A stretch of DNA of 64,000 nt from an uncultured Gammaproteobacteria bacterium (GTDB lineage: Bacteria; Patescibacteriota; Patescibacteriia; Patescibacteriales; GWE2-39-37): positions 341,496 through 405,495 of the forward strand of contig CAYUCS010000001.1 in NCBI GenBank assembly GCA_964443495.1. The letters run 5' to 3'. The notes beneath the pieces were generated by a model that was not told where the DNA came from, made no database searches, and saw only the letters and a program-made list of their open reading frames with translations. Of this stretch, positions 3,256 to 48,606 are shown piece after piece. The translations under genes and the position numbers were made by a program. Positions within the stretch are counted from its first letter, which is position 1. Each line of letters starts with the position of its first letter.

Positions 3256-4032
3256 TTAAAGCGGTATGTCGGATTTTAGGATCTTGCCGATCGGAGTGAA
3301 ACTGGCGGCATATTTGGAAAGCGGCTTTTCAGCGGGTTTCTGGGCCGGTGAGGCAGGAGCCGCCGGTTCGGCCTTTGGAGCCGTCACGGCAACCGGCAGG
3401 TCGGCCGGAACAGCGGCAGGCTGGATTTCGCGGATCGGGGCGATCGTGACCGCGGTCGGGGCCGGTGCCGGGTCGGCAATGGCCGGGGTGCCTGATTGCT
3501 GGGTGATGATGGTCTCGGTCGGTTGCGGGGCGGTTGGCGCCATGTCAGCGTAGGTCTCCATGTCGGTCGAAAGTATTTTGTACTGCACGCCGGTTTCAGC
3601 GAAGATATCGGCGGTGCGTCCGGAGCCATGGTAATTCTTCTGGCAGACGACGCGTTTGATGCCGGCATTGATAATCATCTTGGCGCAGGTATAGCAGGGG
3701 GTCATCTTCTGGTAGATGGTCGCGCCGTCAAGCGAGATTCCCTCGCGCGCGGCCTGGCAGATGGCGTTCTGCTCGGCGTGGATAGTGCGGATGCAGTGGC
3801 GGCTCTGGTGGCCGTCAGCATGAGTGACGGTGTGCATCTCATGGCCGATCTCGTCGCAGTGGGCAATACCGGCTGGTGAGCCGACATAGCCAGTCGCGAT
3901 GATGCGCTTGTCCTTGACGATGACGCAACCGAGACGCCCGCGGTCGCAGGAACCGCGGCTGCCGACCATATCGGCGATGTTCAAGAAGTACTCATCCCAC
4001 GAGGGGCGGTGGTGAGGAGTCGGATTTTCCAT
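3256..4032 (-). CDS. dCMP deaminase with a long Pro/Ala-rich C-terminal tail
   Basis: HAEQNAI and PCYTCAKMI zinc-binding motifs of the cytidine/dCMP deaminase fold; the last ~110 aa are low-complexity P/A/T-rich. Confidence 0.8.
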   Translation of the reverse strand: MENPTPHHRPSWDEYFLNIADMVGSRGSCDRGRLGCVIVKDKRIIATGYVGSPAGIAHCDEIGHEMHTVTHADGHQSRHCIRTIHAEQNAICQAAREGISLDGATIYQKMTPCYTCAKMIINAGIKRVVCQKNYHGSGRTADIFAETGVQYKILSTDMETYADMAPTAPQPTETIITQQSGTPAIADPAPAPTAVTIAPIREIQPAAVPADLPVAVTAPKAEPAAPASPAQKPAEKPLSKYAASFTPIGKILKSDIPL

Positions 4033-6133: not shown

Positions 6134-6559
6134 TTAATCTTTGATTTCTACGCCCATCTGACGAGCGGTGCCGGCGATGGTCTTCATCGCGGCCTCGACG
6201 CTGGTGGTGTTCAGGTCCTGCAGCTTGATTTGCGCGATCTCGCGCAGCTGCGCGCTGGTCAGGGTGCCGACCTTCTCGATGTGGGCCTTCTTCGAACCGC
6301 TCTTGATGCCGGCGAACTTCTTGATCAATTCGCCTGCCGGAGGGGTTTTGGTGATGAAGGTGAAGGAGCGGTCGTCATAAACGGTGATCACTACCGGAGT
6401 GATTTCGCCCATGCGGTCCTTGGTTGCGTCGTTGAATTGCATGCAGAAGGCTTGGATCTGCACGCCGTGCTGGCCCAAAGCCGGACCGACTGGAGGTGCA
6501 GGATTGGCCTGGCCGGCAGGGATCTGCAATTTGATCTGTGCTAGTATTTTCTTAGCCAT
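6134..6559 (-). CDS. rplK: 50S ribosomal protein L11
   Basis: [33 protein letters not shown]... canonical L11 N-terminus. Confidence 0.95.
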
Positions 6560-16351: not shown

Positions 16352-16380
16352 TTGTCAAAATCATTTTTTTGTGTTAATAT
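16352..16380 (+). promoter_or_regulatory. Promoter for tRNA-Lys
   Basis: TTGTCA, 17-nt spacer, TAATAT (preceded by TGT), 55 nt upstream of the tRNA. Confidence 0.45.
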
Positions 16381-16435
16381 ACACTTAATCAAGATAATTC
16401 TGCCTCGTGCAGTTTTATTTTTGGTCGACAATTTA

Positions 16436-16508
16436 GCGCCCATAGCTCAGTTGGTAGAGCAGGTCCCTTTTAAGGACAAGGTCCAAGGTTCGAGTCCTTG
16501 TGGGCGCA
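16436..16508 (+). tRNA. tRNA-Lys(UUU): tRNA-Lys (anticodon UUU)
   Basis: Cloverleaf: GCGCCCA/TGGGCGC acceptor, GCTC/GAGC D stem, CTTTTAA anticodon loop, CAAGG-TTCGAGT-CCTTG T arm; no encoded CCA. Confidence 0.9.
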
Positions 16509-16510
16509 CA
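16489..16510 (+). repeat. Direct repeat copy 1 (the tRNA-Lys 3' end itself)
   Basis: TTCGAGTCCTTGTGGGCGCACA, identical to 16678-16699. Confidence 0.9.
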
Positions 16511-16549
16511 AATATAAAGCACCGGCCAATCGGCTGGTGCTTTATATTT
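16510..16549 (+). terminator. Long AT-flanked hairpin after tRNA-Lys
   Basis: AAATATAAAGCACCGGCC / GGCTGGTGCTTTATATTT ~18-bp stem with one G-U pair. Confidence 0.6.
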
Positions 16550-16663
16550 GTGCGTTCTCTAGGTAAAGCGAATTTTGCGGGAGGAGGGTGCTAAAATATA
16601 CAAAATAATTTCCAGTTATTAATTAATAAAATCAATAATAAATGACCACTTCTCATGAGAGAC

Positions 16664-16699
16664 GGGGCTTTCGCCCCTTCGAGTCCTTGTGGGCGCACA
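16664..16699 (+). repeat. GGGGCTTTCGCCCC hairpin plus direct repeat copy 2 (tRNA-Lys 3'-end fragment, att-like)
   Basis: Hairpin at 16664-16677 abuts the exact 22-nt copy of the tRNA 3' end at 16678-16699. Confidence 0.85.
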
Positions 16700-16779: not shown

Positions 16780-17691
16780 ATGAAAAAGCTGATCAGAATC
16801 ATATTTGATGAAGTGATGGCCCGCATCCTGAATGCGCGCCGTTTCAACAACCCGTTCTGCTGGGTGCGGCTGCGTATGTGCCTGAGTTTTGCTAACCGGC
16901 TGGTCGACGAGAAGGATTGGTACATGATCAAGCTTTACAGCGGCATGCAGACGCCGCTCCTCGACGCCATCGAGTATCTGGCAAAGGTCGGGGACTACTC
17001 CTCGGTTCCGCGGCTTGAGACGCTGCTCCGGCACTACCTGAAGAAATCTGAAGAGGGCGGGCGGACAAGCGATTGGGGCGGCGGAGAAGTCACTTGCTTC
17101 TACGGCCCGATGGACTACATGCCTCAGTATGTGCAGACCGCGGCCATCCGGGCGCTGTTCGCCTTGATGGCTAAAGCCGATGCCGAGAATCTCGCCAAGG
17201 AACTTCTGGCGCAAGCCGAAACCAACGGCCTGTGCGAACGCTCGCTCGAAGAGGTGTCGGAATTCCTCGAACTCGGCTACATCGGCCGCGGCTTTTGGCG
17301 CGACGATGCCAGGTATCAGGCGCCGTTCAAGGTGCCGGAGGATTCTATCATGCTGCACCAGGGGTATCGTGGGCGTGCCGATGGCAGCTTTATCGAATAT
17401 TTCCTGGTGTATGCCAGTCAGGCTGACTACAAAGTCGACAAGACTGCCGACAACTCGGGTTTTTCCTGGATAACTGCAACCCTGGTATTGGGGGTCAGCG
17501 AATCCGAGAGCTGTAGCGTCAAGGTCAAGTATATAGTTCACGAGGATGGCGTCGGAGTCATTGATGGCCTGATTTTCGATCTTGAAGATATTTTCAACGA
17601 CAACTACCGTAAATTGAAGAAGTTGGAGCGTCTGTGGCTGAGATTCCGAGAAGGGATCCTGCCGGAGGCACGCCCCGAATTCGTTGCGTAA
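16780..17691 (+). CDS. Hypothetical protein with N-terminal HEAT-like repeat
   Basis: Strong AAGGAGG Shine-Dalgarno; LLDAIEYLAKVGDYSSVPRLETLL resembles a HEAT/PBS-lyase repeat; the rest is unknown. Confidence 0.6.
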   Translation: MKKLIRIIFDEVMARILNARRFNNPFCWVRLRMCLSFANRLVDEKDWYMIKLYSGMQTPLLDAIEYLAKVGDYSSVPRLETLLRHYLKKSEEGGRTSDWGGGEVTCFYGPMDYMPQYVQTAAIRALFALMAKADAENLAKELLAQAETNGLCERSLEEVSEFLELGYIGRGFWRDDARYQAPFKVPEDSIMLHQGYRGRADGSFIEYFLVYASQADYKVDKTADNSGFSWITATLVLGVSESESCSVKVKYIVHEDGVGVIDGLIFDLEDIFNDNYRKLKKLERLWLRFREGILPEARPEFVA

Positions 17692-17736
17692 ACAGCAGCT
17701 GCATCGATTTGCAAGTAACCGCCCCTTGAAAGAAAT

Positions 17737-17765
17737 AAGCCCCCTCAGGAAACAGAGGGGGCTTT
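17737..17765. terminator. Bidirectional terminator between convergent orphan genes
   Basis: AAGCCCCCTC / GAGGGGGCTT 10-bp stem. Confidence 0.6.
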
Positions 17766-17788
17766 AATATTGCTGGGCCAGCTAGGTT

Positions 17789-18340
17789 TTAGTCGAACCG
17801 TGCATGGCCGCACAAGAAAAAGGGCATCGGTGGCGGCGGATCGGCAGGTGGACGCCAACCGTCATGACAGTAGGTGCGCGGGATGATGAGGCTGCCTTGT
17901 TCAACTCTGGTTACGACAGAACAGGGGAAGGTCAGCCGGCTCATATCTCGGCCGCCGAAGCCCGTCATCTTTTCCCGTAGAACCATAAGGCAGATCAGCG
18001 ATTCCGGCGGATCAGTAGGCAGTGTTTTGAAATTCTGTCGGAACTCTGATTCGAGCAACTGCCAGGTCATGCCCAGGAAGATGGCTTGCCACTCCGATGG
18101 GTGGGAGTACTCGAATTCTTCGCAGGCCGGTTCAGTAATCGGGAAAAGGAGCGTTCTATCTCCTTCGGCGGCATGCCACAGCAAGGCGTGGGTCCTTGCT
18201 TCATTGACCTTGACTACGGTCAAGAAAGGCTCGTCCAGCTTCATCGCAGCAGCCCGGTATTCGGCCATCAGCGCGAATCTTTCTTCTTGGGTTTTGATAT
18301 CCCAAGGGTTTAAAGGATCAAACAAATCTTTCCAGTCCAT
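17789..18340 (-). CDS. Hypothetical protein
   Basis: AAGGAGG Shine-Dalgarno before the ATG at 18340 (MDWKDLFD...); 183 aa; no domain recognised. Confidence 0.55.
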   Translation of the reverse strand: MDWKDLFDPLNPWDIKTQEERFALMAEYRAAAMKLDEPFLTVVKVNEARTHALLWHAAEGDRTLLFPITEPACEEFEYSHPSEWQAIFLGMTWQLLESEFRQNFKTLPTDPPESLICLMVLREKMTGFGGRDMSRLTFPCSVVTRVEQGSLIIPRTYCHDGWRPPADPPPPMPFFLCGHARFD

Positions 18341-18449
18341 ATGAAAGGCCTCCTTGCGGGAAATTTGCGTAACTACCTTACTTATATGAATAAATGCCCA
18401 TGTTGTCAATTTGCGGCGGTTTTGGCGATTTGGCCCGCTCGAGGGTAGA

Positions 18450-22196: not shown

Positions 22197-22269
22197 GCCA
22201 GCTTAGCTCAGTTGGTAGAGCAGCAGTTTTGTAAACTGCGGGTCATGGGTTCGAGCCCCTTAGCTGGCT
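22197..22269 (+). tRNA. tRNA-Thr(UGU): tRNA-Thr (anticodon UGU)
   Basis: GCCAGCT/AGCTGGC acceptor, GCAGT-TTTGTAA-ACTGC anticodon arm, TTCGAGC T loop (one T-T mismatch in the T stem). Confidence 0.85.
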
Positions 22270-22276
22270 CCTGCGA

Positions 22277-27574: not shown

Positions 27575-28048
27575 TTATTTTCTTTGGTCAACTAAACCCC
27601 CGATATACTTCGCTTTATAAATTTCATCTCCATCCGCGGACTTGATTATTTCCTCGCCAAAAAAATTATCGATTTCTCCTTCGTAAACATTGATATATTC
27701 AACGTCGTCAAGGTTGTATCGTTTTGGGCCACGAAATGGTTTATCCTCGGGAATCTGCGAAAGCGCACCCTGCAAGGTTTTGTAAACAGTCTGAACATCA
27801 GCAACGCCTTCAACCACCCAGCCATAATAAACCATCATGTAAACAGGTAAGCCTCGAAAAAATACAACCTCTCGTCCGCCATATGGTTCACCGCCAAAGT
27901 AATTATCATGATATTTCCAATCCCCATCTTCAAATATCAATGTTGTGGATTTGTCAGCTTCAACAATTTTTTTGGCAGAGTCACCAGCCGCATAAGTTGA
28001 TTTTTTAGCTTTAACCAGAAATTTACAAAGCTCGTTTTGGTCAAACAT
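27575..28048 (-). CDS. DUF5680-like protein of unknown function
   Basis: WKYHDNYFGGEPYGGREVVFFRGLPVYMMVYYGWV block as I remember it for DUF5680; AT-rich gene. Confidence 0.5.
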   Translation of the reverse strand: MFDQNELCKFLVKAKKSTYAAGDSAKKIVEADKSTTLIFEDGDWKYHDNYFGGEPYGGREVVFFRGLPVYMMVYYGWVVEGVADVQTVYKTLQGALSQIPEDKPFRGPKRYNLDDVEYINVYEGEIDNFFGEEIIKSADGDEIYKAKYIGGLVDQRK

Positions 28049-28310
28049 GATTTTAAATTACCACCTTAAAAATAAATTTTATTTCACTTAACGTTACTCA
28101 CATGCGAAGTTCGTTTGAAGCGTAGTGAAAACGAATTTGGGTGGAGGCTTTCGGAGAAAACCGTAACCGCATGTGAGTTGTTGTGCGATGTGAATATTTT
28201 TCTTTTGTTCGCCCTTAGACGAACGGCTCAAAAAAAGAATCTAATTTTGTTTTTCCGTCTTGGATTCAGGCCAGAGGGGTCAGGGGTGAATGGCCTGGAG
28301 CCAAGACTCC

Positions 28311-29561
28311 TTAAATTTTAAAAAAAATATCATTCAAATTATCCTCAGAAAAAGATGCATCATCTTTAATCCAAAACTTTATTGAATCTCGAAGAAATCC
28401 TTCTATCTTTATTATATCATCATTAGTTAATCCGTGTTTATTTCCATGCACTATTTTACTTCTGGTTGCATACATTTTTTTAATAAAATCAAATATTTCT
28501 TTTCTATGATCTTGATCTCCCAAAAGAAAAGCCACGCGCATTGATAATCTAAATGTTAATTCGTCATTTCCATTTGGTAAATATAGTGATTCAAGACCTA
28601 TCATATAGTCAATCAATTTATCTTCAATATTTCTTCGTTCCATGCCAAGACTCAATCTTCTCATGGCTATATTAAATCTAGTATCTTTTTCTTTCGTAAT
28701 GAACTGGTAAATATCAGAAAGTTCTTCAATTTCTGATTTTACAAGTACGCACTTTTCCCCTATAACTATATTTTCAAACCAGGAACCAATGGTTGTAATG
28801 CCGCCGTGAGGATGGAATGTTTCCATTTCTGAATTAATTCTATGATCCCTGTAAACTCCCGAAGATTTTAATATTCTAAGTGCGCTTATCACTCTATCAA
28901 AAATGTCACTTGATATGTTTAATTCATCCTCACCAGGAATAGCAAGTGGCTCTTCTGGCTCAGATGGCACTCCAGATTTAATAATTTTAGCGGTTTCATA
29001 CTTTCTTTGAATAATATATGATGATTTTGAAAAATTAGCATATCCTCCCTCAAAGTCATAATCAGGCTCTGATAAACTAACAACTTTAGTTTTTATTACA
29101 ATTCCGTCACTCAGATCAATCTCAGCCTCTTCATATTGAAAGTTGTACAGTGCGGTTGAGTCAATAAATTGCAGCTTTTCAGAATAAAATAACTCTTCAA
29201 AGCTCAAATATGCCTGATTGAATATGTCTAATGAAAATTCAGCATTTTTAAAATAAAAGCTTCTCAAGAAACTCAAAAGACACGATTCGGAATTTCCAGT
29301 GGTTGTAAAACCTCGGCAAGTTCCAACAAGATTGCCAAGTAAGCCGTTAATTTCTGGAGCAACTTTCATTATTTCCTCACATTCACTAAATTCTGGTATT
29401 TTTTTAATCTCATTATCAAAATTTATTAATAATCTAATTACATAATATTTTTCACTCATGCGTTGCGGATCTAACTTTAAATTCCGACCATAAAAAGAAA
29501 GTGCTGACTCAGTTAGCACTTGAAGGTTGATATACAATTCCTTGTTGTGTATTTGTTCCAT
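28311..29561 (-). CDS. HEPN-domain protein (C-terminal Rx4H RNase-type motif) with an unknown N-terminal region
   Basis: C-terminal helices RFNIAMRRLSLGMER, LIDYMIGLESLY, LTFRLSMRVAFLLG, KKMYATRSKIVHG (R367..H372, nt 28446-28463); very AT-rich. Confidence 0.6.
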   Translation of the reverse strand: MEQIHNKELYINLQVLTESALSFYGRNLKLDPQRMSEKYYVIRLLINFDNEIKKIPEFSECEEIMKVAPEINGLLGNLVGTCRGFTTTGNSESCLLSFLRSFYFKNAEFSLDIFNQAYLSFEELFYSEKLQFIDSTALYNFQYEEAEIDLSDGIVIKTKVVSLSEPDYDFEGGYANFSKSSYIIQRKYETAKIIKSGVPSEPEEPLAIPGEDELNISSDIFDRVISALRILKSSGVYRDHRINSEMETFHPHGGITTIGSWFENIVIGEKCVLVKSEIEELSDIYQFITKEKDTRFNIAMRRLSLGMERRNIEDKLIDYMIGLESLYLPNGNDELTFRLSMRVAFLLGDQDHRKEIFDFIKKMYATRSKIVHGNKHGLTNDDIIKIEGFLRDSIKFWIKDDASFSEDNLNDIFFKI

Positions 29562-29819
29562 ATTGAAAAATATTCAAATAAACTTTTTTTGCCTCTTTGT
29601 AGGCAAAAAAACACCTTATTACCCCTATATAAATAGATAAAAAAACAAAATTGAATTCTTTTTTGAGCCAGGGCGTAGCCCAAAAGGAAAACATGCATTT
29701 CGCACAACTCGTTATTATGCGAAATGTTTTCGCAAAACATGCTTAAATGTGTATGTTATACGAAATGTTTGATATAATTTTAGTGTTCGCTAACTTTAGA
29801 TTAATTATACCAATTGGCT

Positions 29820-30058
29820 ATGAAATTGGAAGAGTTATTGCGAAAAATTGAAAACGAGCTAAGGCTGAGAAATTTTAGCCGACGTACTATCAAAAGCTAT
29901 GTGGCTTGCCTCTCTGAGTATTTGAGGTGCGTCTAGGGGATAAATGCCGATAAGGGCGCTATGTACAAGAATCGTTAGGGCATGCTAATATCAGAACTGC
30001 TCAGATTTATACCAAAGTGACGAGTCCGATGCTGAAAAGCATCGCAAGCTCGTTGTGA
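29820..30058 (+). pseudogene. Tyrosine recombinase/integrase remnant (N- and C-terminal fragments, catalytic core deleted)
   Basis: 29820-29936 encodes MKLEELLRKIENELRLRNFSRRTIKSYVACLSEYLRCV*. 29975-30058 encodes LGHANIRTAQIYTKVTSPMLKSIASSL*. Confidence 0.7.
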
Positions 30059-36159: not shown

Positions 36160-36639
36160 ATGGACATCCGTTCAACCGACGCAATCCGCCCCGAGCAGCC
36201 GCCGCAACCTGAGCGGCCGCAAGGCTTTACGCCCGAAAGGCCGGTCATGGTGGAGCAGCGGCCTGAAGCGCCGAAGCCGGTTGAGCGTGCCGGCGAGGAA
36301 GATTTTCCGCCTTCGGCCGCCGCGCAACAAGATGGCGACCTGGTGATCGCTCCGGCCTCGCCCGAAGTCCAGCAGATTGAGAAGATCATGGAAGATGGCC
36401 TGGCCGAGTTCTACGCCCAGATGCCGCCGGACAAGCAGCGCGAGTTCCGCCGGGTCGGCGAACAGACTGCCCGGCAGATCAGCCAGCTCCTGACCGCTAC
36501 TAAAGTGCAAATCGGCAAAATCATCAGCCTGATCAAAGATTGGCTCAAGATCCTGCCCGGCGTCAACCGTTTCTTCATCGAACAGGAGGCTAAGATAAAA
36601 ACTGACGAGCTTTTGCGCATGCGTCAGCCCAAACCATGA
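36160..36639 (+). CDS. Hypothetical Pro/Glu/Arg-rich protein coupled to the T4CP-like ATPase
   Basis: 159 aa; N-terminal ERP/PEx low complexity; C-terminal amphipathic helix; ATGA overlap with the downstream gene. Confidence 0.55.
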   Translation: MDIRSTDAIRPEQPPQPERPQGFTPERPVMVEQRPEAPKPVERAGEEDFPPSAAAQQDGDLVIAPASPEVQQIEKIMEDGLAEFYAQMPPDKQREFRRVGEQTARQISQLLTATKVQIGKIISLIKDWLKILPGVNRFFIEQEAKIKTDELLRMRQPKP

Positions 36640-39149
36640 ACTACGGACTCGAACAACCGGTGAGCCAGCCGCTGGATCCGACCGCTTTTGTCGATCTGGC
36701 GCTCGTTTATATTTTCGGCGCCCTGGTCGCCTTGTTTTTGCTGCTGGTGATCGCCAAGAAATTGATTACCCACTTCGCCAAAGGCAGCCACTACTTCGAC
36801 CACGTCATCTACCTGGTGCGCTTGTCCAAGGAAAAGCCGACCGACAAGGATAATAACCTGACGGTGCAGCAGCTCCGCGAAGAGATTGCTCGCGGCGAGA
36901 CCTTGTTTTCCTCCATCGGCGGCTTGCGCGCCGAGCGCGGCATCAGGCCGTGGCTTTATGGCCGCCGCGATCATTTTTCCTTCGAGATCGTGGCCAGTAA
37001 GAAAGTGATCGCTTTTTATCTGGTGTCGCCGCGGCCGATGGCCCGCTATCTCGAACAGCAAGTCCAAGCCCACTATCCGGAGGCCGTGGTCGAGGAGGTG
37101 CGCGATTACAATATCTTCACGCCGCAGAGCGTCATCGATTTCGGCTGGCTCAAGACCCGGCGCAGCTTCATCTTCCCGATTCGCACTTACAACAAGATGG
37201 AAACCGATCCGTTGAATTCCATCATCAACGTCTTGTCGAAGCTTGGCGAGAACGAATCTTTGGTCATCCAATACGTCGTGCGCAGCGCCAAAGGGATATG
37301 GCACTCGAAGGCCAGCCGCGTCTTCTCCAAAGTACGGCAGGGAAAGCCGTTGCACGAAGCCCTGAATAGCTCGCCCTGGGCCGAATTTTTCAGCTATTTC
37401 AAAGGCACGAGCCCTGAGGACAAACAGAAGCAGCAACAGCAGCAGACGATGCAGCGCACCAATGCCATGGATGAGGCGATTCTTAAGAATCTGGAAGAGA
37501 AGAATTCCAAGGCCGGCCTCGACGTCAACCTGCGCGTCATCGTCAGCACTGGCAGTGCCGAGCAGTCGCGCGGATACCTGGCTAACATTATCGGCGCTTT
37601 CTCCCAGTACAATCTTTACGAATACGGCAACTCTTTCAATAACAAGGTCAATTCTTTCATCAAAGGCTGGCGGCACAAGAAGTTCATGAAGGATTATATC
37701 TATCGCCGCTTCGACGACAAGCTGAGCTTCCTTTTGAATACCGAGGAGCTGGCCAGCCTGTTCCATCTGCCGCTCCGCTGGACCGAGACGCCGAACATCC
37801 TCTGGCTGACAGCTAAGCACGCCCCGGCTCCGACCGAAATCCCCAACGAAGGCATCATCCTCGGGCGCAATATCTATCGCGGCGTCGTGCGCGACGTGCG
37901 CATCAAGCGTGAGGATCGCCGCCGCCACACCTATATCGTCGGTAAGTCGGGTGTTGGCAAATCGGTGCTCTTGGCCTCGATGGCCATCCAAGACATCCTC
38001 AACGGCGAAGGTGTGGGCGTGATTGATCCGCATGGTGATTTGATCGATGACATCTTGAAGCGGATTCCGCCGGAACGCGCCGAGGATGTCATCCTGTTTT
38101 CGCCGGCCGACATCGAGCGGCCGCTGGCCCTGAACCTGATGGAATTCGACCCGCGTTATCCCGAGCAGAAGTCGTTCGTCATCAATGAGATGATCAAGAT
38201 TTTCGACAAGCTGTATGATCTCAAATCGACCGGCGGTCCGATTTTCGAGCAGTATATGCGCAACGCCATGCTATTGGTCATGGCCGACCCCGAGAGCGGT
38301 TCGACCTTGATGGAAATACCGAAAGTCCTGGCCGATGCGGAATTCCGCAAAATGAAGCTTGCTCGCTGTTCCGACCCGACGGTCGTCGATTTCTGGCGCA
38401 AAGAAGCGGAGAAGGCTGGCGGCGACGCGGCTCTGGCCAATGTCGTGCCCTATATCACCTCCAAGCTCACCTCTTTCATTTCCAATGATATGATGAGGCC
38501 GATCATCGGCCAGCAGAAGAGCTCGTTCAACTTGCGCGACCTGATGGATCGGCAGAAGATCCTCTTGGTCAGCCTGCCCAAGGGCCAGGTCGGCGAGCTT
38601 AACGCCTACCTGCTCGGCATGATCCTGGTGGGCAAGGTCCTGGTCGCCGCGCTGTCCCGCACCGACATGGCGAAAGAGCAGCGCAAGGATTTTTATCTTT
38701 ATATCGACGAGTTCCAGAATTTCACTACCGATTCTATCTGTTCCATCTTGTCCGAGGCCCGCAAATACAACCTGAACCTGGTCATGGCGCACCAATATCT
38801 CGGCCAACTGGTCAAAGGCCAGGACTCTTCGATCAAGAACGCGGTTTTCGGCAACGTCGGCACCTGGGTCTCGTTCAAGGTCGGTTCGGAGGACGCCGAA
38901 GAGCTTTCCAAGGAGTTCGCGCCGGTCTTCAACCAATATGACCTGATAAATGTTGAGAAATATTCCGCCTACATCAAGCTTCTGATCGACAACTCCGCTT
39001 CCAGGGCTTTCTCTATGGCCACGACCTGGCCGTTGCCCGGCCTCAAGCGCGATGACCTGGCAATGAGGATCAAGAGCTTGTCACGCCTGAAGTACGGCCA
39101 GGACCGCAATATTATCGAGGAAGAAATCAGGCGCCGGGTCAATATCTGA
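36636..39149 (+). CDS. VirD4/TraD/TrwB-like coupling-protein-type P-loop ATPase (FtsK/HerA superfamily), membrane anchored
   Basis: N-terminal TM helix; IVGKSGVGKS Walker A; GVIDPHGDL; FYLYIDEFQNF Walker B; ARKYNLNLVMAHQYLGQL. Confidence 0.65.
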   Translation: MNYGLEQPVSQPLDPTAFVDLALVYIFGALVALFLLLVIAKKLITHFAKGSHYFDHVIYLVRLSKEKPTDKDNNLTVQQLREEIARGETLFSSIGGLRAERGIRPWLYGRRDHFSFEIVASKKVIAFYLVSPRPMARYLEQQVQAHYPEAVVEEVRDYNIFTPQSVIDFGWLKTRRSFIFPIRTYNKMETDPLNSIINVLSKLGENESLVIQYVVRSAKGIWHSKASRVFSKVRQGKPLHEALNSSPWAEFFSYFKGTSPEDKQKQQQQQTMQRTNAMDEAILKNLEEKNSKAGLDVNLRVIVSTGSAEQSRGYLANIIGAFSQYNLYEYGNSFNNKVNSFIKGWRHKKFMKDYIYRRFDDKLSFLLNTEELASLFHLPLRWTETPNILWLTAKHAPAPTEIPNEGIILGRNIYRGVVRDVRIKREDRRRHTYIVGKSGVGKSVLLASMAIQDILNGEGVGVIDPHGDLIDDILKRIPPERAEDVILFSPADIERPLALNLMEFDPRYPEQKSFVINEMIKIFDKLYDLKSTGGPIFEQYMRNAMLLVMADPESGSTLMEIPKVLADAEFRKMKLARCSDPTVVDFWRKEAEKAGGDAALANVVPYITSKLTSFISNDMMRPIIGQQKSSFNLRDLMDRQKILLVSLPKGQVGELNAYLLGMILVGKVLVAALSRTDMAKEQRKDFYLYIDEFQNFTTDSICSILSEARKYNLNLVMAHQYLGQLVKGQDSSIKNAVFGNVGTWVSFKVGSEDAEELSKEFAPVFNQYDLINVEKYSAYIKLLIDNSASRAFSMATTWPLPGLKRDDLAMRIKSLSRLKYGQDRNIIEEEIRRRVNI

Positions 39150-42235: not shown

Positions 42236-43066
42236 ATGAATAATAAAAAAGGAGTTCAGAAGAATCGTAAACCGAAAGTCGCTTTGGTTTTGGGCGGCGG
42301 CGGCGCTCGCGGCATTGCCCACGTCGGCGTCTTGAGGACGCTCGAGGCCGCGGGCATCAAGATTGACGCCATCGTCGGCACTAGCATGGGCGCGCTGGTC
42401 GGCGCCTGCCATCTTCTGGGCCGGCTCGATCTGTTCGAATCCGAGGCTCGCAGCTTGAACAAGCGCAAGGCCATCAAGGAAATCCTTGATTTGACAGTCC
42501 CCAAATATTCGCTGCTTAAGGGCAAGAAGGCTCATCGCTATATCGAGAAATTGGTCGGGCGCAACAATTTCAACCATCTGAACGCTCCGTTGTGGGTGAT
42601 TGCTACCAACCTGGCCGACGGCCAGCCAGTCATCGTCAATAAAGGTAGCTTGGCCAACGCGATCCAAGCCAGCATCGCCGTGCCTGGCGTCTTTCCGCCG
42701 GTGAAGCTGGGTGATGACTATTTGGTCGATGGCGGCGTAGCCAGCCCGACCCCGATCGCCGAGGCTTTGGCCTGGGGCGCCGATATCGTCATTGCCGTGG
42801 ATTTGGTTTTGAAGCGGGGAAGCAAGCTGAGGGAAAAGCCGGACTTGTTGTTTACCTTGATGCAGTCCTATGAAACCATCCGTAACAAGTCGGTTTGGGA
42901 CGGGCAGACCGAGCATCAACGGGTCATCACCATCAGGCCTGACCTGAATGGCAACGGATTGGTCTCAAGCTTCAAGTTTTTTAAGGTAGATGATTTCATT
43001 ACTGCCGGAACCAAGGCGGCAATCGGGGCATTACCGGAAATCAGGGAAGCGATTGACAGTTTCTAG
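42236..43066 (+). CDS. Patatin-like phospholipase
   Basis: LVLGGGGARG oxyanion motif, GTSMG nucleophile elbow, DGG near the C-terminus; ATG at 42236 (the ORF opens at a TTG at 42230). Confidence 0.85.
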   Translation: MNNKKGVQKNRKPKVALVLGGGGARGIAHVGVLRTLEAAGIKIDAIVGTSMGALVGACHLLGRLDLFESEARSLNKRKAIKEILDLTVPKYSLLKGKKAHRYIEKLVGRNNFNHLNAPLWVIATNLADGQPVIVNKGSLANAIQASIAVPGVFPPVKLGDDYLVDGGVASPTPIAEALAWGADIVIAVDLVLKRGSKLREKPDLLFTLMQSYETIRNKSVWDGQTEHQRVITIRPDLNGNGLVSSFKFFKVDDFITAGTKAAIGALPEIREAIDSF

Positions 43067-43148
43067 ATATTGGGTTACAATAGCAAACGAGGCTTCAAGG
43101 CCTTATTTGTATTAAGGCTGGTCTATTTGAGGCCGCAAAATATAATAT

Positions 43149-43219
43149 TCGGGGATCGTCTAATGGTAGGACAGCGGGTTCTGGTCCCGTCAATTGGGGT
43201 TCGAGTCCCTATCCCCGAG
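43149..43219 (+). tRNA. tRNA-Gln(CUG): tRNA-Gln (anticodon CUG)
   Basis: TCGGGGA/TCCCCGA acceptor (U1-A72), GCGGG-TTCTGGT-CCCGT anticodon arm, TGGGG-TTCGAGT-CCCTA T arm. Confidence 0.85.
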
Positions 43220-43227
43220 CAAATAAA
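43203..43227 (+). repeat. Direct repeat copy 1 (tRNA-Gln 3' end plus 8 nt)
   Basis: GAGTCCCTATCCCCGAGCAAATAAA, identical to 43319-43343. Confidence 0.9.
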
Positions 43228-43299
43228 ATCAGTCCCTTTTGGGGCTGATTTTATTTTGTTTGTGGGATAGGGCCGAAAGAAAGTCAATGCGTGAGGCGT

Positions 43300-43343
43300 G
43301 GGGCTTCCGCCCCGGTGAGAGTCCCTATCCCCGAGCAAATAAA
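43300..43343 (+). repeat. GGGGCTTCCGCCCC hairpin plus direct repeat copy 2 (tRNA-Gln 3'-end fragment, att-like)
   Basis: Hairpin at 43300-43313, then GGTGA, then an exact 25-nt copy of the tRNA-Gln 3' end at 43319-43343. Confidence 0.85.
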
Positions 43344-43385
43344 TAAAGAGCACCTCCTCAAGAGGCGCTCTTTATTTATTTTTTT

Positions 43386-43425
43386 AGGAATGGGACTCGA
43401 ACCCGCCTACCGGCAGGCAGGCGGG
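43386..43425 (-). other. Third tRNA 3'-half-like fragment (different tRNA) behind a GC hairpin, inverted orientation
   Basis: Minus strand reads CCCGCCT-loop-AGGCGGG then TTCGAGTCCCATTCCT; no matching 5' acceptor strand upstream. Confidence 0.6.
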
Positions 43426-43501
43426 CAGCAGTGAAAAAAATTTGCACAGCACACTTTATTTATTAAAAAGAAACCCGCGCTTGGCTGGCGCGGGGCTGAA
43501 T

Positions 43502-43948
43502 TTATGGGGCGATAGAGAAAAGTTCGGCTGGCGCGTCGGCAATAACGCATTGGGCGATACCCGACCAGCCACCCCTGGCTTCGTATTCACCAATCCAGAT
43601 CTCACCTTTGCGCTCGAAAGAAAATCGAATTTCGTTAGACTTGGCTATCGTTTCATAGACAGACGAATCCAGTGCTTTCGAATACATTTTTTTGAAATAT
43701 AGCTCATCTGGCAAAAGCCTGATGTTGGACAAGATCGACAAGCCAAGGCGGTCAATCATGTATCCAGGCACCTCAAGCTCATCAAGTTGCTCGGGCGGTT
43801 CCGTTGAAATTATACCGGAAAACATGATTCTACAGTAATCTTTCTTTATGAGCATCGCGGGTGTGGAAGCAATGCCCAGGCTGTGGCGTTGATCGTCGGT
43901 GAAATCGGTTGATTTTTGAAAAAAGAACCCTTGGATGATTTTTTTCAT
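43502..43948 (-). CDS. Hypothetical protein (148 aa)
   Basis: GGAGGTG Shine-Dalgarno upstream of the ATG; no domain recognised. Confidence 0.5.
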   Translation of the reverse strand: MKKIIQGFFFQKSTDFTDDQRHSLGIASTPAMLIKKDYCRIMFSGIISTEPPEQLDELEVPGYMIDRLGLSILSNIRLLPDELYFKKMYSKALDSSVYETIAKSNEIRFSFERKGEIWIGEYEARGGWSGIAQCVIADAPAELFSIAP

Positions 43949-44138
43949 CTTTGCACCTCCGTTGTTGTATTCAAGATTTATTCAGATGTTAGTCAATTTT
44001 TATATTTATGTCAATTTACTTAACTAATTTATTGTGCTGGCCGAGGAGCGTGAATATGATTGACTGCGGGAGTAAAATATGTTTGAATATGTAATCTGCT
44101 CATTTCATTAAAAATAAACCAACTCAGGAGGTGGAAGG

Positions 44139-45329
44139 ATGAAAATAGATACTTCGAGACGGCTTGAACAGGCTTTGGCGCTTTGGGAGAACTTGAATTA
44201 CTACTATCGTGTCGTGGCCGAAAGGTGCATCGCGGTCAAGCAGAGCCATCGTTTCCCGATGGAAGAGATGTACAAGAACAGCGATAAGCTGAGAAAAGTC
44301 TTGCTCGGAAGCTATTCCTCGAATCCGTCTGATCGTTTCGACTTTTCGGATTTTAGCGGAAGCACGGAAAAGAGCATGCACCTTTTCGGGAATCTCGGAC
44401 TTTTGCCGCTGTATCTGCATCACTGGACGGTCTCATCGAGGCGCGTCTATCATCTGTCACAGAATCTCCAAACCCTGCTTCGATGGACATCGCTTGATAA
44501 TGTGCGTTGGAGCGATATCGAGTGGCCGTTCAACTCCTTTGTCGTCTCTCTTGAGACGCCCATCGTTGACACCAATGGCGATAAATTCGATTGCATGCTG
44601 TTCACAAAAATTGATGCGATCGACGAAGGAGTTGTCAGGATGTCGGACATCTCGATCACTCTTTTTTCTTCGAGATTAGAGGGTCTTGAAACTTTCACCA
44701 GTGTCCAGCGGCAGAATCTGCAGCGGGCGTATAACGAGTGCAAGGCAAAAAAGGTCAAGAAGATGATGAGCGTCATTGACAGTCTTCAGCCCGGGCCGCA
44801 TGCGACTCGACCGGTAAGGATGTATTACTTCGACGCCATGAAAAATCGCGATATGCTCGTATCCGAAAGTGCCGAAGTGCTTAATGAGCGGCTCGTAAAA
44901 GAGCACCAGCTTGGCAGCTATGACGTTTTCGATGCTGCCCTTAACATCGTTGCCGGTCTGGCCCTTTATCTTGGCTCGCAGGATGCGGACAGCGAAGAGC
45001 GGACCGAGTGGCGCCGTGCCTCTGTTCCTGGCGAACGGAATCATCGGCACATCAACAACACTGCCCAGGTCTGCGAAGTCTTTTGCACGAAAAGCCTTAC
45101 CATCAGGGATCAGGAGTTTATCTCGGCAATCAATCGCCAGTTGGAGATAAGCGGACGCATGGGCATGCCGGTGCATTGGCGGTGCGGCTATTGGAGACGG
45201 CCGCCAGGAATGGGTTGCATTCCGATGGCCAAAAGATCGGTCCGCGTCAGCCCGAGCCTGGTCAACTCCGATCTCATTGATGAGTTTACGGACAAGGGCT
45301 TGCCGGTCGGCTCATGCCACAGGATTTGA
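44139..45329 (+). CDS. Hypothetical protein (396 aa), first gene of an orphan operon
   Basis: CAGGAGGTGGAAGG Shine-Dalgarno; basic C-terminal block PVHWRCGYWRRPPGMG; no domain recognised. Confidence 0.6.
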   Translation: MKIDTSRRLEQALALWENLNYYYRVVAERCIAVKQSHRFPMEEMYKNSDKLRKVLLGSYSSNPSDRFDFSDFSGSTEKSMHLFGNLGLLPLYLHHWTVSSRRVYHLSQNLQTLLRWTSLDNVRWSDIEWPFNSFVVSLETPIVDTNGDKFDCMLFTKIDAIDEGVVRMSDISITLFSSRLEGLETFTSVQRQNLQRAYNECKAKKVKKMMSVIDSLQPGPHATRPVRMYYFDAMKNRDMLVSESAEVLNERLVKEHQLGSYDVFDAALNIVAGLALYLGSQDADSEERTEWRRASVPGERNHRHINNTAQVCEVFCTKSLTIRDQEFISAINRQLEISGRMGMPVHWRCGYWRRPPGMGCIPMAKRSVRVSPSLVNSDLIDEFTDKGLPVGSCHRI

Positions 45330-45370
45330 GCGTGCTCCACGCAAGCCAACGCACAAAGGAGGTAGTTAAG

Positions 45371-45637
45371 ATGGAACAGCCATTCAATTTGACGTCGTCT
45401 GAATTCAGCCCCGCTGGCAAGGTGGTTGGCCACCTGTATTATCACGGCATCCTGAAATGCTTGCTGCACGATGATGAATATTCCGGTTCGCCTAGCGAGG
45501 GCGGTTCGCATTTCCTGCGCCTACACGTCAGCCGAGCGGACCTGGAAGCTTTTCTCGACCTCATCGAGGAATATTATGCGGCCGCTGGCGAACGTTTTGC
45601 CGGCGGCGTAGCTGCCTTGCGCCAGAAAGTCGCGTGA
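45371..45637 (+). CDS. Hypothetical protein (88 aa)
   Basis: AAAGGAGGTAG Shine-Dalgarno 7 nt before the ATG at 45371. Confidence 0.55.
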   Translation: MEQPFNLTSSEFSPAGKVVGHLYYHGILKCLLHDDEYSGSPSEGGSHFLRLHVSRADLEAFLDLIEEYYAAAGERFAGGVAALRQKVA

Positions 45638-45700
45638 TATCCGTTCACGTCAAATAAACGCCCCCCGATTATTGAATCGGGGGCAAGGAGGAGGCAGGAC

Positions 45701-46102
45701 ATGCAACAGTCGAAGAATTTTGGCGAAGCGAAAGAGCGAGGATTGGAAGGCTACGGAACGATGCCCGGGCACGTGCTCGTCTTGAAACACGGCCTGATGG
45801 GCGCTTTTCCGGCATTGATACGCGAAGGTCTTGGGCTGTTCATCTGCACTGACCTCGAAGTCCTCAAGAAGGTCTGGGAGCTCTTGCCGAAGCGGCAAGC
45901 TAAGCTGCTCGAGCTTGAGCTGTGCGCGAACTTGGCCGAGAAGGTCGCCTTCAACCCCCAGCTTGGCGACGAGGCCCAGCCGATCAGAATCCTTGACGAA
46001 GAAGACTTCCGTATCATATCCTCGCGGCCCGACGCATTCATGTGGTCGCCGGGGCTACTCTCGCTGGACGGCGAGGGCGAAGTTCTTTCACCATTTGTCT
46101 GA
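45701..46102 (+). CDS. Hypothetical protein (133 aa)
   Basis: CAAGGAGGAGG Shine-Dalgarno; followed by a terminator. Confidence 0.55.
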   Translation: MQQSKNFGEAKERGLEGYGTMPGHVLVLKHGLMGAFPALIREGLGLFICTDLEVLKKVWELLPKRQAKLLELELCANLAEKVAFNPQLGDEAQPIRILDEEDFRIISSRPDAFMWSPGLLSLDGEGEVLSPFV

Positions 46103-46120
46103 AATCAACCCACTGACGGA

Positions 46121-46148
46121 AAACCCGCTTCGGTGGGTTTTTCTTTTT
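46121..46148 (+). terminator. Terminator ending the 44.1-46.1 kb operon
   Basis: AAACCCGC-TTCG-GTGGGTTT followed by a T-rich run. Confidence 0.65.
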
Positions 46149-46224
46149 GCGCGACCGCAAACTTAAAACGTTCGGCCATAAAAAAACTCCCGGACTAAGT
46201 CCGGGAGTTTTATATGAGTAGAGG

Positions 46225-46422
46225 TTAAGCGAGCTTAACGTTCACTGCGTTCATTCCTTTCGGCGATTCCTCTGATTCGAAAGTGACCTGATCACCTTCG
46301 TTGATCTGGTCAAAGCTGACGCCGACCAGGGAATTGCTGTGGAAGAACAGGTCCTTAGCTTCGCCATCGATGGCGATGAAGCCGAAACCTTTGTCAGTCT
46401 TCTTTTTGATAACTCCGTTCAT
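46225..46422 (-). CDS. cspA: Cold-shock protein (CspA family)
   Basis: KGFGFI (RNP1) and LFFHSN (RNP2-like) motifs; 65 aa. Confidence 0.9.
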   Translation of the reverse strand: MNGVIKKKTDKGFGFIAIDGEAKDLFFHSNSLVGVSFDQINEGDQVTFESEESPKGMNAVNVKLA

Positions 46423-46514
46423 GATGTAATATCATTACTTTGTAAAATGGTAAATCAAACATTTTTAAAGCTCGACGAATTCTCTTTTTCAAAACATTTT
46501 TTTCACTTAGATAT

Positions 46515-46543
46515 ATTGTAGCATAAAATTAAAAAATTGTCAA
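46515..46543 (-). promoter_or_regulatory. Sigma-70-type promoter for the csp gene with a ~90-nt leader
   Basis: Minus strand: TTGACA (46543-46538), 17-nt spacer, TACAAT (46520-46515). Confidence 0.55.
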
Positions 46544-46560
46544 GAATGCCGTTTGCCGGG

Positions 46561-46589
46561 TTGATTTTATGCGCTTAACACGGTAATAT
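46561..46589 (+). promoter_or_regulatory. Promoter for the 40-aa basic ORF
   Basis: TTGATT, 17-nt spacer, TAATAT. Confidence 0.45.
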
Positions 46590-46614
46590 TAGTATTATTC
46601 ATAAATATCCAAAT

Positions 46615-46737
46615 ATGGCTAAAAGAAGCACTGGTGTTGGTAGCAAAAAGACCGGCAGCCCGCACAAGACCGCCAAGCGCCTGGAAACGAAGCGTGTCAG
46701 GCTTGAAGAATTGGCAGCAAAAAGGAAGAAGCGCTAA
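46615..46737 (+). CDS. Highly basic 40-aa microprotein (not in the ORF track)
   Basis: MAKRSTGVGSKKTGSPHKTAKRLETKRVRLEELAAKRKKR*; has its own promoter and a downstream hairpin plus T-run (~46749-46778). Confidence 0.4.
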   Translation: MAKRSTGVGSKKTGSPHKTAKRLETKRVRLEELAAKRKKR

Positions 46738-46794
46738 TAGATACACTGCGAATAAAGACACACCCAGAAGGTGCGTCTTTTTTTGTCTTGCTTA

Positions 46795-47190
46795 TTACAT
46801 CTCGGCATCTGGGGATGGCTCCATCAGTCCGAAACGGTTGCCCTCGGTATCTTTGGCGCCGGCAAACCAGCCGACCCCGGGAATCTCCGACCGTTCCTTG
46901 GTGATGGTGCCGCCGGCTTTTTTGACGGCTTCGACCGCCTTGTCCAGATCCTTGACTTCGACGGTGCAGTCATAGAGATAGAATCTGTCCGAACCGTCCT
47001 TTGGCCGTTCGTATAGGCCGCCGTTGATGCCTGGCTCGCCTTCTTTGCCAGTGATGAGACCCCAGTAGTCCATGCCGCTCTCTTCCTTTTTCATCCATTG
47101 CACGATTTCCCACCCCAGGGTTTCCTGATAGAATTTCTTGGCGCGCTCGATGTCATCGGCTTGGATTTCGAAATGAATTACTCTGTTCAT
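46795..47190 (-). CDS. VOC/glyoxalase-bleomycin-resistance family protein
   Basis: VIHFEIQADDIERAKKFYQETLGW...GWFAGAKDTEGNRFGLM. Confidence 0.75.
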   Translation of the reverse strand: MNRVIHFEIQADDIERAKKFYQETLGWEIVQWMKKEESGMDYWGLITGKEGEPGINGGLYERPKDGSDRFYLYDCTVEVKDLDKAVEAVKKAGGTITKERSEIPGVGWFAGAKDTEGNRFGLMEPSPDAEM

Positions 47191-47206
47191 ATGGTTGATT
47201 TAATTA

Positions 47207-47782: not shown

Positions 47783-47941
47783 ATGATTATCTTACTGCCC
47801 ATGTAATTTACCTCCCCGGAATTAAATAAATGTTAAGACGCCTCGGTTGACTAAAAAGCTGCTGATTGGTAAGCTTTCGTGATAATTCCTCGGCTTCGGA
47901 CCGAGAATCCGGCTCATTAATACAACGCAAAGGAGGAAGGT

Positions 47942-48538: not shown

Positions 48539-48606
48539 GGCGTCGTTCGTGCTTTGCTCCCGCCGCATCGGTTTCCGGTGCGGCTTTTTTCATCCGGAAG
48601 GCAGGC

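Follow-up and report, generated by a model that had tools for sequence, protein, structure and literature searches.

Miniature non-coding units behind tRNA genes of Patescibacteria carry a copy of the adjacent tRNA 3' end: a possible family of recombination cassettes

The tRNA-Lys and tRNA-Gln loci

The stretch of DNA analyzed here (64 kb of contig CAYUCS010000001.1, referred to over its full length as the window) contains a tRNA-Lys(UUU) gene (16436-16509; called by ARAGORN, and by the Rfam tRNA model with 70.7 bits) that is followed by a displaced copy of its own 3' end. The repeated 22-mer, TTCGAGTCCTTGTGGGCGCACA, comprises the T-loop, the 3' strand of the T-stem, the 3' strand of the acceptor stem, the discriminator and the succeeding CA of tRNA-Lys. 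It is present exactly twice, at 16489-16510 and 16678-16699, and shuffled sequences gave an expectation of zero matches even at up to three mismatches, which upholds the duplication reported in an earlier reading of the letters alone (the sequence-only reading). Immediately 5' of the second copy is a GC palindrome of 14 nt (hp1; GGGGCTTTCGCCCC, 16664-16677), whose position abutting the T-loop copy had been described correctly as well. The 14-mer is not significant by itself (1.47 matches expected at up to two mismatches), and its weight rests on the exact sequence together with the adjacency to a T-loop. Within the window, hp1 was found solely here and in a second module behind tRNA-Gln. The duplicated tRNA tail is real and lies far beyond chance, and the family of units to which it belongs is conserved, specific to tRNA genes and apparently undescribed; no published description of a module joining the hairpin to a tRNA tail was found in the literature.

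The two copies at tRNA-Lys are separated by 167 nt that contain no open reading frame (ORF), and this insert, like the other module features of the window, is read on the plus strand. It begins with a terminator-like palindrome that abuts the tRNA (16510-16549; an A-tract, a GC stem, the loop AATC, the second GC strand and a T-tract) and is the dominant hairpin of the predicted fold. The arms of this palindrome reach into the tRNA 3' end on one side and into an inverted copy at 16550-16563 on the other, giving arms of 32 nt that are 84% complementary. The inverted copy, here called the anti segment (GTGCGTTCTCTAGG, 16550-16563), was recognized from the inverted repeat and from comparison across the family as complementary, in degenerate form, to the 3' strands of the acceptor stem and T-stem of the tRNA (Watson-Crick pairs at 8 of 12 positions). 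Next comes a decayed site A (GCGAATTTTG, 16568-16577), homologous to GAGAATTTTG of relatives and to the family consensus of GAGAAC plus a copy of the T-stem 3' strand; this homology was established by comparison with loci L001, L003 and L005 and by a right-anchored alignment of long-class units. An AT-rich spacer of the long size class (16578-16663, last block CATGAGAGAC), in which the length has been kept and the sequence evolves fast, then leads to hp1 and to the second repeat copy (16678-16699). A hairpin equivalent to that at 16510-16549 was observed behind the tRNA, and behind most fragments, in every relative, while the terminator-like site after the second Lys copy of the window is weak, unlike that of most family members.

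The displaced copy lacks the 5' strand of the T-stem and is therefore not a tRNA gene. ARAGORN and the Rfam tRNA model called only the three true tRNAs of the window and made no call on the repeat copy, and a tRNA gene or pseudogene was rejected because the copy begins at the T-loop and the hairpin stands where the T-stem 5' strand would be. A split tRNA or an intron in the T-loop was likewise rejected, as in no unit is the T-stem 3' strand paired with the five nucleotides that precede the hairpin. Upstream of the tRNA-Lys gene there is a promoter-like TTGTCA-17-TAATAT (16352-16380). The leader of about 50 nt between this predicted promoter and the tRNA contains a small hairpin (CTGCCTCGTGCAG, 16400-16422) followed by a T-run, with equivalents in L001, L003, L005 and L006, and may be a leader attenuator or a processing signal.

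The second module has a tRNA-Gln(CUG) gene as its parent (43149-43220; ARAGORN and Rfam tRNA model), which is preceded by a promoter-like TTGACA-17-TACAAT (43053-43081) and followed by a terminator hairpin (43221-43258; 16 pairs and a T-run). As at tRNA-Lys, the arms of this palindrome extend into the tRNA tail on one side and into an inverted, degenerate copy of it, the anti segment, on the other. The unit body (43262-43299) is of the short class and consists of an anti segment (GTGGGATAGGG, 43262-43272), a site-A-like segment (CCGAAAGAAAG, 43273-43283) and a linker (TCAATGCGTGAGGCGT, 43284-43299); it is nearly unchanged in the relatives L244 and L245. Then come hp1 (GGGGCTTCCGCCCC, 43300-43313) and the copy of the tRNA-Gln 3' end (43314-43343), which carries a T-loop variant (GGTGAGAGT), is exact from 43319 and runs 8 nt beyond the tRNA end. 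The direct repeat is thus an exact 25 nt (43203-43227 and 43319-43343), or 30 nt if two changes are allowed, by which the T-loop TTCGAGT reads TGAGAGT in the displaced copy. This variant is kept in L244 and L245, and appears as TGAGAAT in L068. Downstream of the Gln fragment lies a second terminator-like palindrome (43336-43385; inverted repeat and fold), whose stem has changed in sequence in L244 and L245 with its pairing retained.

A truncated third unit (43386-43440) adjoins this palindrome and comprises an anti-like segment (GGAATGGGA), an inverted T-loop CTCGAAC, a GC hairpin of 22 nt (CCGCCTACCGGCAGGCAGGCGG, 43403-43424) and, last, a GC-rich cargo of which only the first part is left (GCAGCAGTGA). 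The unit is intact in L245 (2940-3100), where a GC-rich, multi-hairpin cargo of about 125 nt ends in a further Gln 3' fragment, and decayed in L244 (3140-3330). The fold of the L245 cargo has a z-score of -5.2, and the cargo had no Rfam match. The 22-nt hairpin, which stands directly 3' of the inverted T-loop-like CTCGAAC, is present in the window and in L244 and missing from L245, and in L071 and L184 GC hairpins of 19-38 nt resembling it are inserted right behind the T-loop copy. It seems that small GC palindromes are gained and lost beside T-loop-like sequences. The Lys and Gln units of the window belong to different size classes and have only hp1 and the overall design in common. The remaining tRNA of the window, tRNA-Thr (22197-22271), has no comparable module.

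A family of units behind tRNA genes of Patescibacteria

Units of the same kind were sought in a genome collection by scanning for the hairpin followed by GARTCC, and in metagenomes by a scan in which the inner six bases of the hairpin were left free. Chance matches and two unrelated repeat families were removed before counting. Together, the scans yielded some 45 genuine, non-redundant units with a shared architecture, located behind tRNAs of 13 identities (Lys, Val, Ser, Gln, Ile, Tyr, Ala, Leu, Arg, Asn, Asp, Gly and Pro), and a further unit behind tRNA-Met, in which a hairpin interrupts the fragment (L071), brings the total to at least 14. A search of the kind that the sequence-only reading had proposed showed that the repeat is not confined to Lys and Gln, and its suggestion that these two modules belong to one system is borne out by the common design recurring behind so many tRNAs in many genomes. 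The named source records are metagenome-assembled genomes (MAGs) of Falkowbacteria, Parcubacteria, Saccharibacteria and the 'Patescibacteria group', with a few labelled Gammaproteobacteria by their submitters. Hairpin matches in the Oscillospiraceae MAG Lapin-001__bin13 and the Chloroflexi MAG BP9.bin130 were rejected as unrelated multi-copy repeats that are not adjacent to tRNAs. The former repeat has the form GCGCTTAAG-GGGGCTTTCGCCCC-CTTAAGAATCCC (contigs including L016, L017, L024 and L048), with at least 12 copies in one MAG, and the latter the form GCGCAA-GGGGCTTCCGCCCC-TTACGAATCCC (L026, L029, L066 and L072).

The units always lie 3' of the tRNA and on its strand, in the order tRNA 3' end, terminator-like palindrome, anti segment, site A, linker or spacer, the GGGGCTTYCGCCCC palindrome, and finally the T-loop with the tRNA tail. 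Of the 45 units, 41 are identical to the adjacent tRNA over 13 nt, from the T-stem 3' strand up to and including the discriminator. The left edge of the fragment is the hairpin, and on the right identity mostly ends 1-3 nt beyond the discriminator. Repeat length ranges across the family from 20 to about 100 nt (identity over 75-100 nt in L006 and L088), and six units encode CCA in the fragment where the tRNA gene has none. The spacing between tRNA end and hairpin is bimodal, at 71-84 nt in 14 units and 135-161 nt in 26 units; outlying values are 49 and 54 nt in two sub-family units and 327-332 nt in further array members. The anti segment is located either 19-27 or 90-103 nt before the hairpin, and its end is 21-26 or 93-101 nt away from it. 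With its interior left free in the scan, the hairpin of genuine units is still almost always GGGGCTT[CT]CGCCCC, with TTCC or TTTC as its loop, and where it deviates, paired changes preserve the stem (GGGGTTTAACCCC in L004, GGGGATTCCTCCCC in L184). In the block before the hairpin, only the G five nucleotides ahead of it is conserved across the family, so that TGAG-N4, which the sequence-only reading took as part of the motif to search for, does not hold as a general feature.

The inner segments also follow a common plan. The anti segment comes first after the T-run of the terminator and complements the acceptor 3' and T-stem 3' strands; in L051 and L101, where unit and tRNA differ, it matches the unit's own downstream fragment. 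In site A, the consensus (T)GAGAAC precedes a copy of the T-stem 3' strand of the local tRNA, and together with the end of the anti segment the site forms a T-arm-like hairpin in which the loop carries GA in place of the T-loop TC. Some units (L031 and L041) retain a perfect inverted T-loop, ATTCGAAC. An origin of GAGAAC from a D arm was considered and rejected, given that the motif is also present in Ser, Tyr and Leu units, whose D arms are unrelated. Between site A and the hairpin there is either a linker of about 9 nt or an AT-rich spacer of about 82 nt, with an A-rich tract 20-40 nt before the hairpin.

Several loci carry tandem arrays, with periods of about 182 nt in L068, L104 and L115 and of 173 nt in L091, and L167 has a perfect duplication of 91 nt. 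Members of the L104 array have blocks in common only and not full-length identity, and decayed members were observed in L054, L110 and L005. A second hairpin family (hp2) occupies the same frame, in the order T-stem 5' strand, ATGAGAAGTTTATG, CCCCGRAGCGYYAGCGTAGGGG, TAAAT, T-stem 3' strand and acceptor 3' strand. It was found in L003 (minus strand, ~3400-3470), L104 and L246 (3060-3140), and, shortened, in L068. The arrays of L003 and L104 have it as their third member, and in L246 it takes the place of the hp1 unit at the orthologous tRNA-Gln site. A sub-family with the hairpin GGGGGCTTTGCCCC stands behind tRNA-Val(CAC) in L167 (minus strand, ~6230-6480) and L163 and has neither the anti segment nor GAGAAC.

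One further array was observed in a Parcubacteria MAG (CAWFCE010000002, ~1.088-1.107 Mb; L088 7640-8000, L018 1-8000 and L019 1-3316), where units are combined with a block of genes. Here tRNA-Gln is followed by two hp1 units, 8.5 kb of metabolic genes, a degenerate Gln fragment and a complete unit. The block encodes a sodium:solute symporter, an asparaginase, a peptidase of family S51, an aminotransferase, a GNAT protein and an AMP-binding enzyme, and no integrase was found inside it. An IS30-like transposase gene (HTH_38 and rve domains) 1.6 kb beyond the block is the sole nearby mobile-element gene seen at any locus.

Orthologous loci in relatives

The dnaB/tRNA-Lys locus was compared in six relatives, and the module was present in four of them (DnaB identity of 97, 95, 91 and 81%). 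In each of the four, the displaced copy is that of the genome's own tRNA, with G or A in the T-loop and CCTTG or CCTAT in the T-stem accordingly. The hairpin is GGGGCTTCCGCCCC in three of the relatives and GGGGTTTAACCCC in L004, where both sides of the stem have changed. The spacers of the window, L003 and L005 show recognizable homology and strong divergence. L003 has a third copy of another type, an extra unit. In L005 (80% DnaB identity) the spacer and the distal terminator are retained and the ~35 nt of hairpin and fragment are swapped for 10 nt, which is an imprecise replacement and not a clean excision, and in L007 (75% DnaB identity) the arrangement of genes differs. At the Gln locus, two relatives (patatin identity of 89 and 93%) have an almost identical short unit, TGAGAGT included, with terminator stems altered in sequence and intact in pairing, whereas a relative at 69% (L246) has another hairpin type at the same place.

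These comparisons of sequence show that the Lys and Gln modules are inherited vertically and conserved block by block, with turnover by loss, replacement and addition. As to the presence/absence polymorphism for which the sequence-only reading proposed to look, copy number differs (three copies in L003, a third unit in L245), and the site in L005 that has lost its hairpin and fragment is not a clean empty site.

Chromosomal context

The genes beside the modules are housekeeping genes (dnaB, recR, dnaX, gyrB, ribosomal protein genes and cysS), and DnaB has its closest matches in MAGs of Candidatus Falkowbacteria (identity of up to 97%). The window is, as judged from these matches, a chromosomal segment of a bacterium of the Patescibacteria, or candidate phyla radiation (CPR), affiliated with Candidatus Falkowbacteria. 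The genes directly downstream of both modules (16780-18409 and 43502-49400) vary among close relatives. In L003, a VKOR gene and two additional ORFs are located behind tRNA-Lys, and a gene with a Phage_30_3 domain lies no more than 0.5 kb behind the Gln module in L244 and ~6 kb away in the window.

Two other features of the window were recorded. A patch of low GC content (28001-30000; 0.33 compared with ~0.53 elsewhere), with no adjoining tRNA fragment, may be recently acquired DNA; an ORF inside it (28311-29561, minus strand, 416 aa) had no Pfam match. An ORF of 837 aa (36636-39149) has weak matches to the type IV secretion coupling domains T4SS-DNA_transf, TrwB and TraG-D_C and might be linked to DNA uptake or transfer in this CPR genome.

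Possible origin and function of the units

Our preferred reading, which we put forward as a tentative one, is that the tRNA-Lys feature belongs, as a single unit, to a family of miniature, non-coding recombination cassettes that occurs across the Patescibacteria at the T-loop and 3' end of tRNA genes and is served by a putative trans-acting enzyme. The segment from T-loop to discriminator would be the homology or crossover core common to the tRNA gene, and the GC palindrome and the GAGAAC site at their fixed spacing may be the parts recognized by a recombinase or transposase encoded elsewhere and acting in trans. Insertion or duplication at the T-loop would yield an intact tRNA and a displaced 3' end, tandem arrays could be built and trimmed by repeated events or by unequal exchange between direct repeats, and kilobase-sized gene blocks could be bracketed by these repeats as well. 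Since the same repeats flank the 8.5-kb block in the Parcubacteria MAG, recombination at the repeats is plausible. Points in favor of such cassettes are the exact repeats with sharp borders, the two tight size classes, the arrays and the breadth of tRNA identities, together with the diversity of cargo held in one frame (hp1, hp2 in L246, the 125-nt GC-rich cargo in L245 and the 8.5-kb block). Turnover also speaks for them (the extra unit in L003, the loss in L005 and the 22-nt hairpin indel between the window or L244 and L245), as do the varying gene content downstream and an anti segment that lacks an RNA-strand signature. Of the two forms that the sequence-only reading gave to its integrase footprint, the miniature non-autonomous insert is therefore viable and is the one we prefer, whereas the deletion scar conflicts with the evidence considered below.

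Several observations weigh against the cassette proposal. No recombinase was identified: integrase, resolvase, recombinase and transposase domains were absent from the 48 largest ORFs of the window, and all-versus-all clustering of ORFs from ~4 kb around 41 loci recovered only DnaB and other housekeeping neighbors as recurrent, so that the cognate integrase proposed by the sequence-only reading was not encountered in either set. A search of 2.9 million viral contigs for the motif gave no exact match and three chance-like relaxed matches. Copies within one genome have only blocks in common, unlike recently active elements of the miniature inverted-repeat transposable element (MITE) type, and the conservation of hairpin and fragment in orthologs whose spacers diverge resembles purifying selection at the level of the host. 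Most fragments have their own terminator with compensated stem changes, as would fit transcription units. Further, a crossover at the T-loop leaves unexplained why the inner segments (the anti segment and the T-stem copy of site A) match the local tRNA, and circles of 91-182 bp would be unusually small substrates for recombination. An element of MITE or repetitive extragenic palindromic (REP) type had itself been considered and was rejected for want of many near-identical full-length copies, as the window copies differ in size class and those of L104 share blocks only.

The alternative with the next best standing, possible but in our view doubtful, is that the units encode a structured small RNA or cis-acting RNA that mimics a tRNA 3' end and is transcribed on the tRNA strand, either from inside the spacer or by transcription that runs on through the tRNA terminator. 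Anti segment and fragment would then form a helix like that of acceptor and T-stem, ending at the discriminator, with the T-loop and GC hairpin at the junction and a terminator of its own, and such an RNA could be seen by RNase P, RNase Z and the CCA-adding enzyme and act as decoy, processing signal or hairpin scaffold. The invariable position of the units downstream of the tRNA and on its strand agrees with this, as do the fixed geometry, the conservation of hairpin and fragment as spacers drift, the CCA encoded by six fragments and not by their tRNA genes, and the intrinsic-terminator-like hairpins of most fragments, with stems that differ yet pair. In the fold of isolated short units, hp1 is accompanied by a closing helix, and the fit of the anti segment to the unit's own fragment in L051 and L101 also points toward pairing. 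The preservation of the hairpin stem by paired changes in L004 and L184, in which the fifth pair of the hp1 stem has changed on both sides, is a further argument; a palindrome in double-stranded DNA would be equally preserved by paired changes.

Several results count against an RNA. The anti segments form on average 7.8 of 12 Watson-Crick pairs with their own fragment compared with 6.8 of 12 with the fragments of other units, which is weak pairing; the positions of the segment are clearly non-random. In a symmetric test there was no excess of G-U over A-C pairs (23 versus 18); the anti segment thus has no strand-specific RNA signature and fits a decaying inverted copy at the DNA level. An earlier count of 43 G-U against 2 A-C pairs, taken as proof of an RNA helix, was an artefact of the duplex-folding algorithm and has been withdrawn. 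RNAalifold recovered hp1 alone from the units and no covariation. No match other than the true tRNAs and chance-level hits, well short of the gathering scores, was obtained with Rfam 15, either for the window at the gathering threshold or for both module regions and three relatives at E ≤ 10. No plus-strand promoter was predicted within the units of the window, and a promoter in the AT-rich spacer was rejected for lack of a consistent -35/-10 pair, several candidate -10 boxes being placed so that transcription would start inside the hairpin. Moreover, a helix-forming strand needs no continued identity to the neighboring tRNA, and arrays, decayed members, hairpins inside fragments (L071 and L184) and a sub-family without anti segment or GAGAAC (L167) would be unusual for a functional RNA gene. 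In the preferred reading, constraint would act on the DNA rather than on an RNA. Two further identities were tried and discarded: by-eye comparison with the cores of self-cleaving ribozymes (hammerhead, twister and others) revealed nothing that fitted, and a primer-binding site, with the minus strand complementary to tRNA-Lys, is at odds with a repeat that in most units follows the gene beyond the discriminator (CA.., not CCA).

A bolder extension of the cassette proposal, which we regard as unlikely, would see in the units an integron-like or CRISPR-adaptation-like cassette system operating on the tRNA genes of Patescibacteria. A putative host enzyme would read the universal T-loop and GGGGCTTYCGCCCC and, behind any tRNA, insert or exchange small non-coding cassettes and now and then a block of several genes, copying the 3' end of the local tRNA as it does so, which would amount to a new mode of site-specific DNA acquisition in bacteria with ultra-small genomes and few classical mobile elements. 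A second bold reading, apart from the cassettes, would make the units a new class of RNAs mimicking tRNA ends and drawn from every major tRNA family.

It appears still less probable that the units are selfish or neutral by-products of replication errors driven by palindromes. Terminator palindromes would here seed fold-back or template switching with the palindromic TTCGAA of the T-loop as the switch point, so that partial copies of the tRNA 3' end arise in inverted and direct orientation; small GC palindromes would insert beside T-loop-like sequence and be tolerated in non-functional copies alone, and unequal exchange would keep the fragment identical to the tRNA. This would account for an anti segment and site A that read like T arm and acceptor 3' strand copied in inverse orientation, symmetric across the terminator loop, for the perfect inverted T-loop of L031 and L041 and for a decay of the anti segment without strand bias. 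The coming and going of hairpins by T-loop-like sequences (43403-43424 compared with L245; L071 and L184) and the perfect 91-nt tandem duplication in L167 are also in line with it, and mobile GC hairpins are known from mitochondrial genomes (PMC2800124). Random errors, however, would not repeat the same 14-nt hairpin, GAGAAC and two spacings behind at least 14 tRNAs across classes of Patescibacteria, neutral AT-rich spacers should vary in length and are observed to be constant, and the systematic change of TC to GA in the T-loop-like site is not random mutation.

That a prophage or genomic island with its own integrase once occupied tRNA-Lys and left a deletion scar is very improbable and has largely been refuted already. 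Repeats of tRNA tails as attL/attR are typical of tRNA-targeting tyrosine integrases, and a direct repeat of a tRNA 3' end from the T-loop onward is their classical signature; the variable gene content downstream and the 8.5-kb block flanked by Gln fragments in the Parcubacteria MAG would suit such a history. Remnants of independent deletions, however, would not agree in two sizes and one internal architecture at dozens of loci and tRNAs, and relatives with DnaB identities of 81-97% carry an orthologous unit. The absence of an integrase from the window and from the surroundings of the 41 loci, and of viral matches, counts against a scar too, and neither the window nor the other loci examined, the Parcubacteria Gln array excepted, gave a distal third copy of the tRNA tails by which a large island could be recognized. 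Finally, a guide-RNA-like homing element, in which the hairpin or GC-rich cargo would be a protein-binding scaffold and the next 20-22 nt the guide to the tRNA gene, after the manner of homing crRNAs in CRISPR-associated transposons or of the omega RNAs of TnpB/IscB, is hardly credible: its layout of scaffold hairpin, ~22 tRNA-identical nucleotides and terminator resembles that of a 3'-guide RNA and L245 has a larger structured cargo ahead of its Gln fragment, but no gene for Cas12k, TnpB, IscB or an IS110-type protein (nor for Cas1) was found among the window ORFs examined, none of the guide-dependent types recurred in the flanks, identity in several units exceeds the length of a guide (75-100 nt in L006 and L088), no array of CRISPR type is present, and omega-RNA and HEARO-type families gave no Rfam matches.

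If the units are cassettes, a trans-acting system would shape the gene content beside CPR tRNA genes, and GGGGCTTYCGCCCC plus the T-loop would provide a handle to search for it; if they are RNAs, they would constitute a new and abundant class derived from tRNA. Either way, annotation pipelines should not take tRNA fragments of this kind in these genomes as evidence for the integration of a prophage or island.

Comparison with known systems

In layout, the modules resemble integrative elements that target tRNA genes, such as tyrosine-integrase islands, prophages and non-autonomous derivatives of these like cis-mobilizable elements (CIMEs), which likewise have a tail repeat from the T-loop, leave the tRNA intact, form tandem arrays, supply a terminator and have variable genes nearby. 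In contrast to these, the inserts described here are of 90-180 bp, non-coding, of two size classes and equipped with a conserved hairpin and GAGAAC; their inner segments fit the local tRNA in each case, the design recurs behind 14 or more tRNA identities, no integrase is nearby and inheritance is vertical. Cassette arrays of integrons, clusters of attC sites lacking integron integrases (CALINs), in both of which IntI recombines attC in trans, and Xer-dependent pdif modules are similar in being arrays of short units with an imperfect palindromic site that varies in sequence and has conserved outer parts, in having the enzyme outside the unit and in a cargo ranging from nothing to several genes. 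This likeness is structural only. The modules have neither R'/R'' (GTTRRRY) boxes nor dif-like 11-6-11 sites, their anchor is the 3' end of a tRNA, and a gene resembling IntI was not seen.

Casposon target duplications are ~14-15 bp long, and some casposons target tRNA 3' ends. Integration by Cas1 in casposons and in CRISPR adaptation is comparable in its target duplication with sharp borders and in a specificity derived from the local target, and the module arrays would grow at the tRNA-proximal end as CRISPR arrays do at the leader-proximal end. The modules differ from casposons in a duplication of ~22 nt, in inner segments that match the tRNA and in the lack of a Cas1 gene in the window.

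Among RNAs, the tRNA-like YrlA Y RNAs, the tRNA-like domain of transfer-messenger RNA (tmRNA) and the 3' external transcribed spacers of tRNAs also combine a T-loop with an acceptor-like helix, are small and non-coding, and are in some cases adjacent to tRNAs or co-transcribed with them. The modules are set apart from these by having no Rfam match and no D-loop mimic, by copying the neighboring tRNA exactly, by forming arrays and by a weak helix without a G-U signature. REP elements and bacterial interspersed mosaic elements (BIMEs), Rickettsia palindromic elements (RPEs) and the GC clusters and hairpin elements of mitochondria are short, non-coding GC palindromes in AT-rich intergenic DNA with presence/absence polymorphism among close relatives, as here; unlike them, hp1 occurs only fused to a T-loop copy and with partner motifs at fixed distances. 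The 3' ends of tRNA genes are classical landing sites of mobile DNA, and mimicry of tRNA is recurrent in RNA biology; the module touches on both and fits neither as currently described.

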